Shown here one piece after another: positions 5,480-17,238 of a DNA stretch of 17,238 nucleotides. The DNA is taken from IMG/VR virus record IMGVR_UViG_2675903661_000016, one strand, 5' to 3'. Origin of the DNA: a virus (taxonomy: Duplodnaviria; Heunggongvirae; Uroviricota; Caudoviricetes). Numbering within the stretch: the first letter of the stretch is position 1; the number at the start of each line of letters is the position of its first letter. A model generated the notes under the pieces. The model saw only the letters and a program-made list of their open reading frames with translations, did not search any database and was not told where the DNA came from. The translations under genes were made by a program, and so were the position numbers.

Positions 5480-5635
5480 TTACTTCTCAGATTCGTAGTC
5501 TACGAAGACAGCGACCTCCGTCTGGCCGGTTCGGATTCGTACCTCGCAGAGGTCTTTCCTCGTTACCAGTGCCGTCACAACAACGGTAATACAGATGACG
5601 ATCAGGGCGATTAACATCGCCTTTTGCTGCTTCAT
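5480..5635 (-). CDS. hok: Hok/Gef-family type I toxin (HokD/RelF-like small membrane toxin)
   Basis: 51-aa product MKQQKAMLIALIVICITVVVTALVTRKDLCEVRIRTGQTEVAVFVDYESEK is near-identical in pattern to recalled HokD. AAGGAG SD upstream. An in-frame upstream ATG at 5692 gives a 70-aa ORF overlapping the leader. Confidence 0.8.
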   Translation of the reverse strand: MKQQKAMLIALIVICITVVVTALVTRKDLCEVRIRTGQTEVAVFVDYESEK

Positions 5636-5689
5636 AGCCTGCTTCTCCTTGCCTTTCGGCACGTAAGAGGCTAACCTACGTTTGTGAAG

Positions 5690-5770
5690 CATAGATTGGG
5701 CCTCAGATTAATGTTAAGCGTCCTGCAAGACGCGTAATGTTAACTGGGGCTTTTCTCTGTCTGCCTTACG
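5690..5770 (+). ncRNA. Putative Sok-like antisense RNA region opposite the hok leader (boundaries not determinable by eye)
   Basis: Inferred from hok/sok family organisation: antisense RNA is encoded opposite the 5' leader and upstream-ORF start. A 9-bp inverted repeat CTGTCTGCC/GGCAGACAG (5757-5794) lies in this leader. Confidence 0.2.
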
Positions 5771-5925
5771 GCGGCATGCCCGAGGCAGACAGCCTCAAGC
5801 ACCCGCAGCAATTCTACTTAACTCTTCTTTCCCCGCAAACCGTTTTTATCCCCAGCGGCAAATCGAATACACCACCAGCGCCACCGCCATTGCAATTCCT
5901 ACCGTTATGAACGCTTCAGGCCAGG

Positions 5926-6627
5926 TCATCGTAAAATATTCTCCTCGTTTATCAGTCCGTTTCGCTTCAGGTAGTCCATCGCTTTATCCGGTAGTTTGCT
6001 TGATTTATTAACGCTTTTTAAGGAATGAGATAACCGCTTCACCCACATTGTTAATTCACTTACCTGATCGCCTGATGCTGGATTATTGTCGCTTTTTCCA
6101 GGCAATATGTGCTCTCGACTGGATTTCCAGAATATCCATGCCAAATCCACATTTGGATCCCGGTAATTCATCCCTTCGTTAGCACGAAGCAATAATGTTT
6201 CATGGTTTTTATCATCTGCATGGAACCTGATAAGTGTTTCAAACTGTTCGCGACCGTCATCAGGGATTACCTGAGAGTTACCCGTTAGCACATTCTGCTC
6301 CAGTGATGCTTTTACAAACCAGGCGGCCTGGACTATAACCCCATGGATCCAGCGCAAATCAGCATCGAGATCCTTCTTCTTCATCTTTTCGCCACTTAAA
6401 GCCTTGCTTATGTGGCTGCGCACCAGGTCTTCATGTAACTCCTTCGCCTCCTCAATGGTGAAACCGCCAGGCAAACGCCCCGGAGTTACCGGAGGGTTGC
6501 CAGCCTTGCGCATGGCAATCTCCATGATTTCAACCATATCTCCTGGTGGAATTTTACAATGCTGACCAATATGCCTCTGCTGCCCGGCATATTCGAGGAT
6601 GTGCTCCAGTTTGATACGATTAATCAT
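5926..6627 (-). CDS. Hypothetical 233-aa protein, second gene of an overlapping two-gene cargo module
   Basis: ATG 6627 overlaps the stop of the upstream gene (ATGA), with GGAG SD. Soluble, charged protein with no motif I can assign. Confidence 0.55.
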   Translation of the reverse strand: MINRIKLEHILEYAGQQRHIGQHCKIPPGDMVEIMEIAMRKAGNPPVTPGRLPGGFTIEEAKELHEDLVRSHISKALSGEKMKKKDLDADLRWIHGVIVQAAWFVKASLEQNVLTGNSQVIPDDGREQFETLIRFHADDKNHETLLLRANEGMNYRDPNVDLAWIFWKSSREHILPGKSDNNPASGDQVSELTMWVKRLSHSLKSVNKSSKLPDKAMDYLKRNGLINEENILR

Positions 6628-6992
6628 GATTTATCTCCATTAAGCATGGCATCCCGGCAGGCATTCCAGCCTTCATCAAATCCGACAATGCCATTATTTA
6701 AAGATGGACGAGCATCCGGCACCACCGGTACAGGTTGGGCTACATATAACGGCTGAACATACCAGCCCTTTGATAACCAACTATCAGCAACGTTTTTACT
6801 CCTGGTTATTGCTGGAATACCCAGGCCATTGTCTGAATGCAGCCATGCCACCGGAACCGCCTCCAGCGATGCCAGTGCAATTTTGAATAGCTCTCCCTCT
6901 ACCCTGGCCATCTCTGAATTAGGGTAACATTTCGCAACCGCTATTTTTAATTTGGCTTCTTTGATTAATTGCTCTTTTGTTAATTCAGTCAT
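6624..6992 (-). CDS. Hypothetical 122-aa protein, first gene of the two-gene module
   Basis: ATG 6992; product MTELTKEQLIKEAKLKIAVAK...; preceded by a 150-bp intergenic region with a hairpin. Confidence 0.55.
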   Translation of the reverse strand: MTELTKEQLIKEAKLKIAVAKCYPNSEMARVEGELFKIALASLEAVPVAWLHSDNGLGIPAITRSKNVADSWLSKGWYVQPLYVAQPVPVVPDARPSLNNGIVGFDEGWNACRDAMLNGDKS

Positions 6993-11362: not shown

Positions 11363-11391
11363 TTTACATTAATGAACAGCAGGTACATTAT
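11363..11391 (+). promoter_or_regulatory. Putative early (pL-like) promoter/operator for the ydfA-dicF-dicB-like operon
   Basis: TTTACA (11363-11368), 17-nt spacer, CATTAT (11386-11391); flanked by GTACATT/AGTACT motifs also present in the switch region. Confidence 0.3.
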
Positions 11392-11832: not shown

Positions 11833-12324
11833 CTACAGATTGCCGTTCAGTTTTCTGGCCAACTCCTCAATAGATGGAGGCGATACATAATCCGGATTTT
11901 TATTCATAAGAAACTGATTTTCACAGTAGAGGCACCTGCTTTTATGAAAAAACTCATGTTCTCTAACCGGGAATGGTTGAAGTATCGATACTATCTTTTG
12001 TCCAAAACATTTTGGACAAAGATGCATGATTATGCTGCCGCCGTTCACGGTTACCTCCTTCGAGTACACAAAAGTTCCCGACTCAAGTTGGTTAAGGATA
12101 TAACCTTCCGTCTGAGCCTCAAAGTTTTCAAATTCTGCAATTTTAGCTTTGAGAGAAGCATTTATTTCTTGATAAGTGCTCACCAGCTCAACGAGAGACA
12201 CGCATTCGTGCTGAATAGATGCAAGCTTTGAGTTCAGTTCACCAATAGCCGCATTTACTTCAGCTTGAGTTTTTGCCTCGTTCATTAGTTTTGTAATCTG
12301 AGCGGTTTCACGAATAGCCGTCAT
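11833..12324 (-). CDS. Hypothetical coiled-coil protein with C-terminal Cys4 zinc-ribbon-like motif; antisense AT-rich moron inside the early operon
   Basis: ORF 11833..12390 (TTG); start taken at ATG 12324 (163 aa), ATG 12285 also possible. Long heptad-like helical region, then CPKC...CLYC. About 40 percent GC, markedly below neighbours. Confidence 0.5.
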   Translation of the reverse strand: MTAIRETAQITKLMNEAKTQAEVNAAIGELNSKLASIQHECVSLVELVSTYQEINASLKAKIAEFENFEAQTEGYILNQLESGTFVYSKEVTVNGGSIIMHLCPKCFGQKIVSILQPFPVREHEFFHKSRCLYCENQFLMNKNPDYVSPPSIEELARKLNGNL

Positions 12325-12660
12325 TGCTGCCGTTAATTCAGCGATCACATTCAATACTCTTATTGTTGTTGGGGATATCCAGATTAACAAGCTCCTTGTT
12401 GTTGGGGAATAACAGGTCCACCTCGCCTGACGTGGTTAAAAGCAGGCACACAACACGAAAGCGCTCGGCGAAGTTAGTCTCTCTGTATATGTCGTCGTTA
12501 AATGTAATTCGATCGTGCGCTTCCGGTTGTGGCAATCCGCGAAATGGCGCGGCGGTAAGTATGGCTGGGGCTTCCTCCATTGCTCCAGAAAATGCACCGG
12601 GTTGTCAGGTTGACCATACGCCTGAGTGACAACACCGCCACAACAACCTCTGTTATCACT

Positions 12661-12700
12661 TTTCTGGTGATTCGGCGGAAATGGATATCCGCCATTTTTA
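12661..12700 (+). ncRNA. dicF: DicF-like small RNA (compact variant) ending in an intrinsic terminator
   Basis: TTTCTGGTGATTC-GGCGGA-AATGGATA-TCCGCC-ATTTTTAAAG. The 5' decamer TTTCTGGTGA and the GGCGG/CCGCC arms plus T-tract match recalled DicF, and the downstream AAAGTGTATTTTGTGATGCGGTGAATGCGG resembles the recalled dicF-dicB spacer. The central part of DicF appears absent. Confidence 0.45.
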
Positions 12701-12876
12701 AAGTGTATTTTGTGATGCGGTGAATGCGGCTAAGCGCACGCGGAACAGTTAAAACAAGCGGTCTTTTACTGGCGTAACAGACATCAACTAACAATCCGGC
12801 GTTAATTGTTAACTGGTTAACGTCACCTGGAGGCACCAGGCACCACATCACAAAATTCATTGTTGAGGACGCGATA

Positions 12877-13065
12877 ATGGAAACGTCACTACCAAACGTT
12901 AATACGTCTGAAGGGTGTTTTAATATTGGTATTCTGCTCAGTAACCGGGAGTTTACTGAGGACGCCATCAGGATGAGAAAATATGAGCCTTATCTTCTCA
13001 ATGATAATTCCATACTCTCCAGAATTGCCCTTCTTGAACTTGGCATTTTCGGAGGGCAGCAGTGA
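12877..13065 (+). CDS. dicB: DicB-like cell-division inhibitor (62 aa)
   Basis: GAGGA SD before ATG 12877. Product METSLPNVNTSEGCFNIGILLSNREFTEDAIRMRK... versus recalled DicB MKTLLPNVNTSEGCFEIGVTISNPVFTEDAINKRK...; same length and position after dicF. Confidence 0.55.
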   Translation: METSLPNVNTSEGCFNIGILLSNREFTEDAIRMRKYEPYLLNDNSILSRIALLELGIFGGQQ

Positions 13066-13250
13066 CTTCTGCATTTGCACTGGTAATGACGGTTTTTCTT
13101 ATAACGGGTGAGCCACAGAATGTGATTACCGGAATTTATGCCAGTAAAGAATCCTGCCATCAGGCAAGAGACGAGCAAAAAATTTCCGGTGAATGTCTCC
13201 CGTTAAACAAAGTATCGCTGTACCTGAATAACGAAATACCGGCTGGATAA
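13062..13250 (+). CDS. YdfD-like small protein with N-terminal hydrophobic segment (putative lysis/membrane protein)
   Basis: GTG 13062 with GGAGGG SD, overlapping the dicB-like stop (GTGA). N-terminal AFALVMTVFLITG is hydrophobic. Position and size match ydfD. Confidence 0.45.
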   Translation: MTSAFALVMTVFLITGEPQNVITGIYASKESCHQARDEQKISGECLPLNKVSLYLNNEIPAG

Positions 13251-13345
13251 CCCGCCAGCCATATTAACGCCATACCAACGGATTAAAAATGCCAGCAATG
13301 GCAGGGATTCGTTCACCCTGAAATCTGTAATGAGGTTTAAACACA

Positions 13346-15817
13346 ATGAGTAAAATATTTATTTGCGCCGCCATTCCTGACGAACAGGCAATAAAAAACG
13401 AGGGCGCTGTTGCTGTGGCCACAGCCATTGAAGCCGGTGATGAACGTCGCGCCCGCGCAAAATTTCACTGGCAATTCCTTGAACATTATCCGGCTGCTCA
13501 GGACTGCGCTTATAAATTTCTTGTCTGTGAGGATAAACCCGGTACACCCCGCCCAGCCCTCGACTCCTGGGATGCTGAATATATGCTGGAAAACCGCTGG
13601 GATGAGGCGTCTGCTTCCTTTGTCCCGGTTGAGACTGAATCAGATCCGATGAACGTCACTTTTGACAAGCTGTCCCCTGAAGTACAGAACGCTGTCATGG
13701 TTAAGTTCGACACATGTGAAAACATCACCGTTGATATGGTGATTAGCGCACAGGAATTGTTGCAGGAAGACATGGCAACCTTCGACGGACATATCGTTGA
13801 AGCGTTGATGAAAATGCCAGAAGTTAACGCCATGTATCCGGAGATTAAACTGCATGCCATCGGGTGGGTTAAGCATAAATGTAAGCCTGGTGCCAAATGG
13901 CCAGAAATTCAGGCAGAGATGCGCATCTGGAAAAAACGTCGCGAAGGTGAACGCAAGAAAACCGGAAAATATACGTCTGTTGTTGATCTCGCACGCACCA
14001 GAGTTAACCAGCACCTCACCGAAAACTCAGCAGCAAAAATCAACCCTGTCACTACAGCCATTCGTCGCGAATACAGGCAGACATGGAAAACACTGGATAA
14101 AGAACTGGCCTGCGCCCTCTGGCCCGGGGATGTGGATACAGGAAACATTGACGGTACCATCCATCGCTGGGCTAAAAATGAGGTTATCGACAAGGATCGC
14201 GAAGACTGGAAGCGTATCTCAGCATCAATGCGCAAACAGCCTGATGCGCTTCGCTATGACCGTCAGACTATTTTCGGCCTTGTTCGTGAGCGCCCGATCG
14301 ACATTCACAAAGATCCCGTTGCACTGAACAAATACATCAGCGAATACCTGACGACAAAGGGCGTGTTTGAACATGAAGAAACAGACCAGAGCTCTGCTGA
14401 TGCTATCCTGTCGTCAGCAGCACAAACTGATCCAGTGGAGACGGCGGAATCCAATTCTCAAAAAAATGAAATCCTGGTGGAAGCTGAACCATCTGTAGAG
14501 CGTGAAGGACCGTTTTATTTCGTCTTTACCGATAAGGACGGGGAAAAATACGGCAGGGCAAACAAACTTTCTGGCCTGGACAAGGCGCTGGCTGCCGGTG
14601 GTACCGAAATCTCAAAAGAAGAATATTTTGCCCGAAAAAATGGCACATATACGGGCTTACAGCAAAATACAGATACCGCAGAAGATTCAGAACAACCAGA
14701 GCCGGTAAAAGTTACCGCTGACGAAGTAAACAAAATTATGCAGGCAGCCAATATCAGCCAGCCTGACACCGATAAATTGCTTGCTGCATCACGTGGTGAA
14801 TTTGTTGAAGGGATTAGCGACCCGAATGATCCGAAATGGGTTAAGGGGATTGAAACCCGCGATTCTGTGAACCAGAACCAGCCCGAATCGGAACAAAACG
14901 ACCAGAAAGCGGAACAAAACAGTCCAAATGCGTTACAAAACGAGCCAGAAACGAAACTGCCTGAACCAGAAGTGCAACAAGAACCGGAAAAAGTCTGCAC
15001 CGCCTGCGGTCAGACCGGCGACGGCAACTGTCCTGACTGTGGCGCGGTAATGGGCGACGCAACATACCAGGAAACATTCGATGAAAAAAATCAGGCTGAA
15101 GTTCAGGAAGATGATTCGGAGGAAATGGAAGGCGCTGAACATCCGAACAATGAGAATGCTGGTAACGATCAGCATCACACCAGCGATAGTGAAACTGGCG
15201 AGGCAGCAGAGCCCTTGATTGCGGTGAATGGTCATCACATTATCACATCCACCAGCAGAGTGTGGATTCACCTGTCGGTCGACCTTGAAACGATGGGAAC
15301 AAATCCTGATGCGCCAATCAACTCTATTGGCGGTAAATTTTTTGATCCGGCAACCGGAGAGATGGGGCCTGAATTCAGTAAAGCTATCGATCTGGAAACC
15401 TCCGGCGGAATCATCGACCGTAAAACAATAAAGTGGTGGGCGAAACGATCACGCGAAGCACAATCCGCTATTTTTACCGATGAAATCTCGTTAGATGTTG
15501 CTCTCCGGCTATTCATAGAATTTATCGAAAAAAACTCCGGCGGGCGTTTTGTCCAGGTATGGGGAAATGGAGCCAACTTCGACAACGTAATTTTACGCCG
15601 TTCATATGAACGGCAGGGGATCCCCTGCCCGTGGCTTTACTACAACGATCGCGATGTACGCACAATCGTTGAACTGGGTAATGCCATTGGCTTTGATGTC
15701 AGAATGGCTATTCCATTCGAAGGCGTACCCCACAATGCGCTGGACGATGCCCGTCACCAGGCAAAACAAGTTTCAGCAATCTGGCAAAAACTGATCCCGA
15801 GTCAGGCTGATTTTTAA
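13346..15817 (+). CDS. RecE-like (exodeoxyribonuclease VIII-like) protein with C-terminal DEDDh-type 3'-5' exonuclease domain
   Basis: 823 aa. Internal [33 protein letters not shown] matches the recalled RecE segment [33 protein letters not shown]. Acidic/Gln-rich linker, CxxC-x8-CxxC ([16 protein letters not shown]), then DnaQ-like motifs [16 protein letters not shown] and [11 protein letters not shown]. Confidence 0.8.
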   Translation: [823 protein letters not shown]

Positions 15818-15881: not shown

Positions 15882-16130
15882 ATGGCAAGACTTATTCTGC
15901 TCACTGAGTGGGCAAAAGAGGAATTCAGTGAACCGGTCCCTACTCCGGGCACGTTAAGTAAATACGCTAAAGCCGGAATGATATTTCCTCTCCCCAAAAA
16001 AGTTGGAAGACACTGGCGAGTGGATCCTCGAGCTCGCTTTGTCGGAATGGTAAACAAGCCGGAAGTGATCGCCACAGATCACCCTGCTTTGAAGAGGATA
16101 CTGGAAGATGGCGCGCCCACGAAAATATAA
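15882..16130 (+). CDS. xis: Excisionase-like protein (Xis)
   Basis: 82-aa basic protein immediately upstream of and overlapping int; recalled as the prophage excisionase-like (DUF1233) type. Confidence 0.65.
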   Translation: MARLILLTEWAKEEFSEPVPTPGTLSKYAKAGMIFPLPKKVGRHWRVDPRARFVGMVNKPEVIATDHPALKRILEDGAPTKI

Positions 16131-17238
16131 AACTGAAGTTCCGGGATTATCTCCGTATTTTGACAAAAGAAATAACAAAGTTTACTGGCGTTACAGGCAT
16201 CCCATAACAGGAAAAAATCACGGGCTCGGCAGTATTGACCAGAAACAGGCAGAAGCTATTGCAGCAGAAGCGAACAGCCGTCTTGCCAGGCAACAAATGG
16301 AACAAATGCTCACTCTGCAGGAGAAAATTATTCGTGATACCGGTGGTTCATCAACCGTTTCTGTTTTTCTGAATAGTTACCGAAAAATTCAACAGGAAAG
16401 ATATGAAAACGGAGAGATCAAACTCAACACACTGAAACAGAAAGCATCCCCTCTCAGGGTATTTGATGAACGTTTTGGTACCAGACCTTTAGATGCCATA
16501 ACCGTAAAAGATGTGGTATCGGTGCTGGAAGATTACAAGGCAAAAGGACATAACAGAATGGGACAAATTTTCAGGAAAGTACTGATTGATGTTTTCCGGG
16601 AGGCCCAGCAAACGGGCGATGTCCCGCCAGGCTTTAACCCTGCAGAATCGGCAAAAAAACCACAGGTACGGATATCACGGCAACGACTGACCTTTGATGA
16701 GTGGATGATGATTTATAATGCAGCGGAAAAGGATGGTTACTTTTTACAGCGTGGTATGCTGCTGGCACTGATGACAGGCCAGCGCCTTTCAGATATTTGC
16801 AAAATGAAATTTTCGGATATCAGGGATGGTTATCTTCATGTCGAACAGCAAAAAACAGGAACCCGGATTGCCATCCCTCTGGCTCTGCGTTGCGATAAAT
16901 TAAATCTCACCCTGGATGATGTGGTGTCATCCTGTCGCGATTGCGTTCTTAGTCCGTGGCTATTGCACCACCATCATGCTAAAGGGACAGCTAAGCGCGG
17001 CGGGATGGTTAAGCCAGCAACGTTAACCGTTGCATTTAAAAAAGCCCGGGATTCAGTGGATTACAACTGGCGTGCTAATGGCACCCCACCCTCTTTCCAT
17101 GAGCAGAGATCTTTATCAGAACGATTGTTCAGAGAACAGGGAATTGATACCAAAATTTTGCTGGGCCATTCGAATCAAAAAATGACCGATATTTACAACG
17201 ACGCACGCGGTAAGGAATGGAAAAAACTGGTCATTTGA
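16108..17238 (+). CDS. int: Tyrosine-type site-specific integrase (lambda Int family)
   Basis: 376 aa; C-terminal catalytic region with LLGHSNQKMTDIYNDARG (His and the active-site Tyr). Terminal gene of the window, overlapping the xis end. Confidence 0.85.
   Translation: MARPRKYKTEVPGLSPYFDKRNNKVYWRYRHPITGKNHGLGSIDQKQAEAIAAEANSRLARQQMEQMLTLQEKIIRDTGGSSTVSVFLNSYRKIQQERYENGEIKLNTLKQKASPLRVFDERFGTRPLDAITVKDVVSVLEDYKAKGHNRMGQIFRKVLIDVFREAQQTGDVPPGFNPAESAKKPQVRISRQRLTFDEWMMIYNAAEKDGYFLQRGMLLALMTGQRLSDICKMKFSDIRDGYLHVEQQKTGTRIAIPLALRCDKLNLTLDDVVSSCRDCVLSPWLLHHHHAKGTAKRGGMVKPATLTVAFKKARDSVDYNWRANGTPPSFHEQRSLSERLFREQGIDTKILLGHSNQKMTDIYNDARGKEWKKLVI

Follow-up and report, generated by a model that had tools for sequence, protein, structure and literature searches.

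The window analysed here, a stretch of 17,238 nucleotides from IMG/VR virus record IMGVR_UViG_2675903661_000016, corresponds to positions 2934690–2951927 on the chromosome of E. coli STEC1590, a Shiga-toxin-producing E. coli (STEC) strain, and constitutes the early region of a ~52-kb lambdoid prophage whose integrase gene adjoins the host gene ompW. On the + strand, the order is a cI-like helix-turn-helix (HTH) repressor gene, DUF1391, an open reading frame (ORF) in antisense, dicB, a ydfD-like DUF1482 gene, an exonuclease gene, xis and int. The exonuclease gene, which is the subject of this analysis, occupies positions 13346–15817 (+) and is complete, with an ATG start and 823 codons followed by a stop. 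A Shine-Dalgarno-like GAGG can be read at 13332–13335 (+), 10 nt upstream of the ATG. The product is 100% identical to WP_033885205.1, the “exonuclease” of STEC1590, and phrog_2082 (“exonuclease”) spans it from end to end in PHROGs; homologues are labelled “exonuclease” or “3'-5' exoribonuclease” in the source databases. Judged from its sequence, the protein is a multi-domain mosaic of DicB-type (Qin/Tritos-like) lambdoid prophages, in which a RecE-type scaffold is fused to a predicted DEDDh exonuclease, and which represents the intact form of ydfE.

The C-terminal residues 641–823 (15266–15814, +) are predicted to form a DEDDh 3'-5' exonuclease domain with a complete active site. Pfam family PF16473, “Rv2179c-like 3'-5' exoribonuclease”, matches residues 642–813 with an E value of 9.2e-60 and 201.8 bits against a cutoff of 27, and the match covers model positions 2–177 of 177. 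The C-terminus thereby falls in a nuclease family, PF12684 is absent, and an earlier note on this DNA was right to see DnaQ-like 3'-5' motifs (DLE, FD, and HxxxxD) in place of the PD-(D/E)XK nuclease of RecE. The predicted catalytic residues are Asp646 and Glu648 in the DLE motif, Asp746 in FD, and His796 and Asp801 in HNALD. In an alignment of the product with 77 diverse representatives, drawn from a search of 1.84 billion proteins, Asp646, Glu648, Asp746, and His796 are invariant among the 78 sequences, and Asp801 is at least 90% conserved.

Among solved structures, T4 DexA (PDB codes 8KEL and 8KEN) is the nearest to this domain; the family profile finds it with an E value of 2e-22. In the same search, the values for oligoribonucleases and DnaQ are about 1e-4 to 1e-5, while phmmer with the whole protein against the PDB sequences returned nothing. 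All five catalytic residues align with those of DexA (Asp7, Glu9, Asp119, His186, and Asp191; hmmalign). The two proteins differ in that DexA is a standalone enzyme of 227 residues with extra loops, belongs to a virulent phage, and has a pairwise identity to the domain of only 26%. DexA is a phage 3'-5' DNA exonuclease implicated in host-DNA scavenging and in double-strand-break processing during intron homing (PMC12153337). Because DexA itself belongs to PF16473, the “exoribonuclease” in the family name does not fix the substrate.

The remainder of the protein invites comparison with RecE (exonuclease VIII) of the Rac prophage, as both are large early-left proteins of lambdoid prophages, encoded near xis and int. 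Residues 262–625 align with residues 278–591 of K-12 RecE at 38% identity (BLASTP, E 2e-62), which bears out the central RecE-like segment described in the earlier note. Residues 474–625 (14765–15220, +) form an acidic and Gln-rich linker with a zinc ribbon, homologous to RecE 454–591, where the identity is 66% for the protein and 77% for the DNA relative to K-12 recE. The composition of the linker agrees with what had been claimed for the region ahead of the nuclease: residues 500–546 hold 11 Asp/Glu, 8 Gln, and 6 Asn among 47 residues, and 17 of the 66 residues at 575–640 are Asp or Glu. The zinc ribbon, C551xxC554-x7-C562xxC565 (14996–15040, +), is read from sequence and conserved in RecE; its dN/dS is 0.08, and Pfam zinc-ribbon matches are sub-threshold only. 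The motif had been recognised earlier with a spacing of x8, whereas the sequence has x7.

The likeness to RecE ends at AEPLIA/ADPVIV, ~15 residues short of the crystallised RecE nuclease domain, and the predicted DEDDh domain stands where the PD-(D/E)XK nuclease of RecE would begin. From these alignments, we conclude that a natural nuclease swap has taken place on a shared scaffold, and the predicted polarity of the product (3'-5') is opposite to that of RecE. Pfam detects neither PF12684 nor PF06630 in the product, whereas K-12 RecE carries both, and the RecE equivalog NCBIfam NF007259 reaches 280 bits against a cutoff of 1269, with only residues 453–626 aligned. The product is therefore not a RecE but is related to it via the scaffold only, and “RecE-like” is an apt description of the shared non-catalytic part but not of family membership. 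In K-12 recE (L002:5787-8387), PF06630, named “Exonuc_VIII”, covers the non-catalytic residues 2–178, and the true RecE nuclease is PF12684 “DUF3799” (RecE residues 606–866). Because PF06630 is a non-catalytic N-terminus, “exonuclease VIII” labels can fall on other nucleases, for example on the homologues P0122 and P0129.

Residues 1–255 (13346–14110, +) constitute a YdfE-type N-terminal region, identical at 230 of 255 positions (90%, BLASTP) to K-12 ydfE of the Qin prophage, and phrog_5943 covers residues 1–257. This region is not homologous to the N-terminus of RecE (PF06630). The K-12 gene lies in the order dicF-dicB-ydfD-ydfE but is cut by IS2 after ~255 codons, and consequently has no domain B or C (see below), linker, or exonuclease. 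In an AlphaFold2 model of residues 1–640, computed from 18 sequences, three domains are predicted with confidence, separated by long disordered stretches. Domain A (residues 100–208; 13643–13969, +) is predicted to be helical (pLDDT 84–95, dN/dS 0.17) and has no significant structural match in the PDB or BFVD. Domain B (residues 240–344; 14063–14377, +), with a predicted helical core (pLDDT 81–93, dN/dS 0.13), is common to RecE and all long DEDDh fusions in an alignment of 17 proteins that includes RecE; it is 26% identical to RecE 294–351 (E 3e-6), and a profile search with it returned short fragments only. Domain C (residues 385–436; 14498–14653, +) is predicted to be a small beta/alpha insertion (pLDDT 92–94, dN/dS 0.06). 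It faces a gap in RecE and is missing from RecE and most relatives, so that domain C and the YdfE-type N-terminus both set the product apart from RecE. A resemblance of domain C to the GIY-YIG domain of UvrC was considered and rejected, as the Foldseek probability is 0.14 only and Pfam gives no support. Homologue fragments over the domain C area carry the newer Pfam family PF27432, and PF27430 is also precomputed on homologues.

The gene is under purifying selection. Relative to the Tritos homologue, dN/dS is 0.22 overall, 0.06–0.19 in the predicted domains, and 0.3–1.45 in the linkers, and the overall value implies that this is not a chance ORF. The gene is also common. A full-length search of 5.8 billion proteins is dominated by E. 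coli copies with at least 94% identity, and of the 5426 complete E. coli genomes surveyed by megablast, 3523 (~65%) have the gene at a coverage of at least 80%; among genomes with any match, the median number of matching places is two. Phage records that carry it include Tritos (88%), HannyBb, PhiR42_1, mEp460, and vB_EcoS-689R5, and the order dicB-ydfD-exonuclease-xis-int is repeated in Tritos and vB_EcoS-689R5. It follows that “unusual”, as the earlier note had put it, does not hold as regards frequency: the gene is widespread and already annotated by PGAP and PHROGs, its module type is catalogued, and it does not represent a new kind of system.

Relatives were sampled at two levels. The viral sample consists of 80 IMG/VR loci, with C-terminal domains 77–99% identical to that of the window; 67 of them have DicB and 68 have YdfD, and the N-terminus is YdfE-type in 58 and RecE-type in 19. 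In P0122, RecE residues 1–592 (88% identical) are followed by the DEDDh domain, which makes this protein a natural chimera. RecE and the chimeras P0122 and P0129 all carry PF06630, and many more distant proteins of 641–851 residues combine RecE-type N-terminal segments (PF06630) with domain B and the DEDDh domain. A scan of one genome per species gave a further 80 loci, divided into 29 long fusions and 51 standalone proteins of ~182–260 residues. The long fusions come from Escherichia, Citrobacter, Klebsiella, Enterobacter, Kluyvera, Pluralibacter, Atlantibacter, Buttiauxella, Dryocola, Kosakonia, Phytobacter, and Scandinavium, and the fusion architecture is thus kept across about a dozen genera of Enterobacteriaceae at 50–60% identity. 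An integrase gene follows the exonuclease gene in 27 of the 29 fusion loci, and in the loci examined the exonuclease gene is the last early-left gene before xis-int. In 15 of the 29, of non-Escherichia type (e.g. L175:8000-8380), a protein of ~123 residues is encoded directly upstream of the exonuclease; this protein (…STSYLEQIFNKLRVGKLVVSQRGPGGGY…) resembles, as judged by eye, an Rrf2-type HTH regulator.

Six of the 51 standalone loci adjoin P22-type Erf or Abc2; the standalone relatives in such modules are 53–58% identical to the domain and give full-length PF16473 matches. Two examples in P22-like recombination modules, each of 182–183 residues, are encoded immediately upstream of abc2 (L188:168-1029) and ~490 bp downstream of erf (L193:8874-10546). 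These two loci indicate that one exonuclease subfamily occurs both inside canonical recombination (Rec) modules and fused to a RecE scaffold in the absence of an annealase.

That absence is consistent. No recT or bet lies between the exonuclease gene and xis, as the earlier note had stated, and the same holds in the further loci. PGAP annotates no annealase, Gam, or Abc2 anywhere in the ~52-kb prophage (SSB and MuGam/GamL were checked through annotation only), the 2-kb stretch between repressor and exonuclease contains small ORFs only and no recombinase domain, and beyond the window on the int side there is host DNA only, so an annealase gene just outside the window, which had been raised as a possibility, is not found. 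Among the 80 viral DEDDh loci, none has RecT, lambda Bet, or P22 Erf, and none has lambda Exo, Gam, Abc2, or the RecE nuclease (tblastn, E<1e-5). In the control, 80 IMG/VR loci found by the PD-(D/E)XK nuclease domain of RecE, recT is immediately downstream in all 80. Neither RecT, Bet, nor Erf occurs within 10 kb of any of the 29 species-level fusions, and the PGAP and phage annotations of this prophage, Tritos, and vB_EcoS-689R5 likewise show no annealase.

Two groups of lambdoid phages in the literature are relevant to this arrangement. In PMC12315714 (Genome Res 2025), 314 lambdoid phages are classified, and DnaQ-like nucleases are listed as members of lambdoid Rec modules. The standalone DnaQ-like nucleases of epsilon34 type (PMC12315714) belong to the same exonuclease subfamily as the C-terminal domain of the product and are encoded between erf and abc2 in P22-like prophages. 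They differ from the product in that they have ~182 residues, carry no scaffold, and stand beside an annealase and an anti-RecBCD gene, whereas the product has a RecE-type body of 640 residues and neither neighbour. A closer match is the class with Tritos as prototype, which has four members and is described in Table 1 of the same source as having a nuclease, no annealase, SSB, or anti-RecBCD function, and many Chi sites. The gene order is the same in Tritos, whose homologue is 88% identical, and the STEC1590 prophage shares the lack of annotated annealase, Gam, and Abc2 and has five Chi sites in the lambda-top orientation. The assignment to this class follows the class description, and no function is given there for the Tritos nuclease. 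Phages without anti-RecBCD are there proposed to rely on host RecBCD-Chi recombination.

In the whole prophage, Chi sites number five in the lambda-top orientation and three in the opposite one. A Chi octamer is located inside the exonuclease gene at 15249–15256, CCACCAGC on the + strand and GCTGGTGG on the − strand; its orientation is the one with five sites prophage-wide.

Based on the similarity to DexA, the shared scaffold, and the genomic context, we tentatively propose, with somewhat less than even confidence, that the protein trims DNA 3' ends during the lytic phase, in cooperation with host recombination. The gene would be transcribed from pL, together with dicB and ydfD, on induction or during lytic growth, and would stay off in the lysogen. 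The C-terminal domain would strip nucleotides from free DNA 3' ends by two-metal-ion DEDDh catalysis, and the RecE-type scaffold might anchor the nuclease at DNA ends or on a host partner. By trimming 3' tails or flaps, the enzyme could then make phage ends into substrates for, or products of, RecBCD-Chi-RecA recombination by the host. Since there is no annealase and no RecBCD inhibitor and Chi is present, the enzyme presumably does not supply single-strand annealing with 3' tails. The 3' tails needed by annealases or RecA are in any case beyond the reach of a 3'-5' enzyme, and with RecBCD kept active, trimming is the most coherent role. The earlier note had left a choice between an unusual recombination protein and another role such as DNA processing or anti-restriction; the evidence speaks for DNA-end processing during lytic growth rather than for a role in defence.

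Several points weigh against this proposal. According to PMC12315714, 3'-5' exonucleases usually inhibit recombination, and an end-blunting role that promotes recombination is deduced here from context. The Chi count in the prophage is modest. PF16473 includes enzymes for both DNA (DexA) and RNA (Rv2179c), and membership of the family cannot settle which of the two would be the substrate. Fold searches give no recognisable relatives for the N-terminal domains, so that tethering is conjecture. The annealase queries were RecT, Bet, and Erf, so that other families could be missed, and each 80-locus viral sample represents closely related prophages and not independent events. The promoter assignment comes from a crude consensus scan and is weak, and the searchable literature contains no functional study of the product or of ydfE.

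A broader interpretation, which we consider rather doubtful at present, is that the N-terminal body of RecE is a docking platform for DNA ends or host partners that is indifferent to nuclease polarity. Combined with a PD-(D/E)XK nuclease and RecT, the scaffold would drive autonomous single-strand annealing; combined with a DEDDh 3'-end trimmer and no annealase, it would channel phage ends into the RecBCD-Chi-RecA pathway of the host. The latter would amount to a third phage recombination strategy, different both from replacement of the host pathway (Red, RecET) and from its reprogramming (Abc2). The role of the first ~600 residues of RecE is puzzling even though full-length RecE powers linear-linear recombineering; a 2023 review leaves the function of the N-terminal region unassigned while noting that it enhances linear-linear recombination (PMC11611040). 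The use in nature of the same scaffold with a nuclease of predicted opposite polarity, and without RecT, suggests that the function of the scaffold is separable from nuclease and annealase, and the nuclease-swapped chimeras with 88% RecE N-termini offer a ready handle on the role of the RecE N-terminus. Roughly two of every three complete E. coli genomes contain the gene, frequently more than once, and prophages of Shiga-toxin producers are among its carriers; if it does aid annealase-less lambdoid phages via RecBCD and Chi, this would bear on prophage replication and mosaicism.

An unlikely alternative is that the protein is a prophage defence nuclease for superinfection exclusion, with the DEDDh domain degrading the nucleic acid of incoming phage and the N-terminal body recognising the target, which could be 5hmC-type modified DNA or the 3' ends of RNA phages. 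There are precedents for both. EcD (“HREX”), a standalone DexA homologue of E. coli, is reported to degrade T4 DNA while sparing unmodified DNA, and to confer protection from T4 (PMC12153337). TONDOs are ISG20-like DEDDh exonucleases with auxiliary domains of unassigned function, encoded by prophages and plasmids, which are reported to defend against MS2 and Qbeta (PMC13344964). The product resembles them as a DEDDh exonuclease on a mobile element, intact copies of its gene are extremely common among E. coli prophages, and the DexA tetramer residue Asp90 is replaced by Val718, as it is missing in EcD (Ser87 corresponds to Ser715; hmmalign). If defence or counter-defence were its function, the gene would be among the commonest of that kind in E. 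coli. These precedents nevertheless belong to other DEDDh subfamilies: EcD (MIDTET…TIPETY, reconstructed from primers) was not found among the sampled loci, and PMC13344964 sets TONDOs apart from the other DEDDh groups. The residues reported to read 5hmC in DexA, Trp152 and Asp169, are not kept but correspond to Tyr766 and Ala780, in a loop where the alignment is uncertain, and no PADLOC-DB 2.0 defence model matches the product at E values up to 0.1.

The position of the gene also argues against defence. It belongs to a repressor-controlled early-left operon with the toxic dicB and ydfD, and not to a position expressed in the lysogen. A candidate pL-type promoter is found at 11363–11391 (+), downstream of the cI-like gene, although with nine of 12 consensus matches it is weak evidence, and the consensus scan shows no promoter-like site from there up to the exonuclease gene. 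An early-left gene with no promoter-like site of its own should be silent in the lysogen, which is where defence must act.

It is also possible, but improbable, that the enzyme is an exoribonuclease like Rv2179c that trims the 3' ends of phage or host RNA, for instance of early-left transcripts (the xis-int message, cf. retroregulation by lambda sib) or of small RNAs of dicF type. The Pfam and NCBI family names, “3'-5' exoribonuclease”, and the oligoribonucleases as detectable relatives are compatible with this, as is the location directly upstream of xis-int in the loci examined. The best characterised relative is nonetheless the DNA exonuclease DexA (E 2e-22, compared with ~1e-4 for Orn), the scaffold is shared with RecE, an enzyme acting on DNA ends, and standalone relatives are found inside the Erf/Abc2 modules for DNA recombination. 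Moreover, no RNA-binding domain is detected in the product by Pfam, and no DicF reaches the Rfam gathering score upstream of dicB (~12400–12876 of the window), whereas DicF is present at the equivalent place in Qin and Tritos.

A function in early-lytic counter-defence or takeover, in which the enzyme would destroy immune nucleic acid with a free 3' end (retron msDNA, or DNA or RNA guides) or scavenge host DNA, appears quite improbable. The timing implied by the inferred early-operon placement would fit, host-DNA scavenging is the classical role of DexA (PMC12153337; T4 annotation), and, lacking an annealase, the gene does not belong to a two-component recombinase. On the other hand, such a function is entirely conjectural, degradation of host DNA is not known from temperate lambdoid phages, and the retention of the RecE scaffold together with the presence of relatives in Rec modules points to recombination. 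That the gene is a decaying remnant, a recE that lost nuclease and recT through illegitimate recombination and persists as functionless cargo of defective prophages, is very hard to sustain, since the many truncated copies (K-12 ydfE by IS2), the many partial database entries, the mosaic make-up, and the long disordered stretches are outweighed by an intact ORF with a complete active site, a dN/dS of 0.22 with constraint concentrated in the folded domains, an architecture conserved throughout the dozen or so genera and presence in complete or partial phage genome deposits including Tritos, HannyBb, PhiR42_1, and vB_EcoS-689R5.

The conserved upstream neighbours in the same operon are dicB at 12877–13065 (+; Pfam DicB, E 7e-34) and the ydfD-like DUF1482 gene at 13062–13250 (+; Pfam DUF1482, E 2e-15). 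Downstream, the conserved excisionase gene xis occupies 15882–16130 (+; Pfam Exc and PGAP annotation), and the integrase gene int occupies 16108–17238 (+; PGAP annotation), after which the prophage ends at ompW. A terminator-like hairpin is located at 12674–12693 (+), upstream of dicB. Between repressor and dicB, the antisense ORF at 11833–12390 (−) encodes 185 residues that match phrog_1244 and no Pfam family; we take this to be the place that is occupied in Rac and P22 by sieB-like exclusion genes, which are expressed in the lysogen.

Further features are found elsewhere in the window. An ORF at 6624–6992 (−) is called a partial “valyl-tRNA synthetase” pseudogene by PGAP, but this label is doubtful because PHROGs matches only the phage families phrog_5117 and phrog_660, both unassigned in function. 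In the early-right region of the prophage, a hok/sok-type toxin-antisense RNA locus is located at 5630–5804 (−; Rfam sok RF01794, 117.7 bits), and a Hok/Gef family protein is called by PGAP in the same region. Finally, the prophage carries two tRNA genes at 282–355 and 368–440 (−), annotated by PGAP as tRNA-Arg and tRNA-Ile, and both adjoin a DNA methyltransferase gene at 481–1641 (−).

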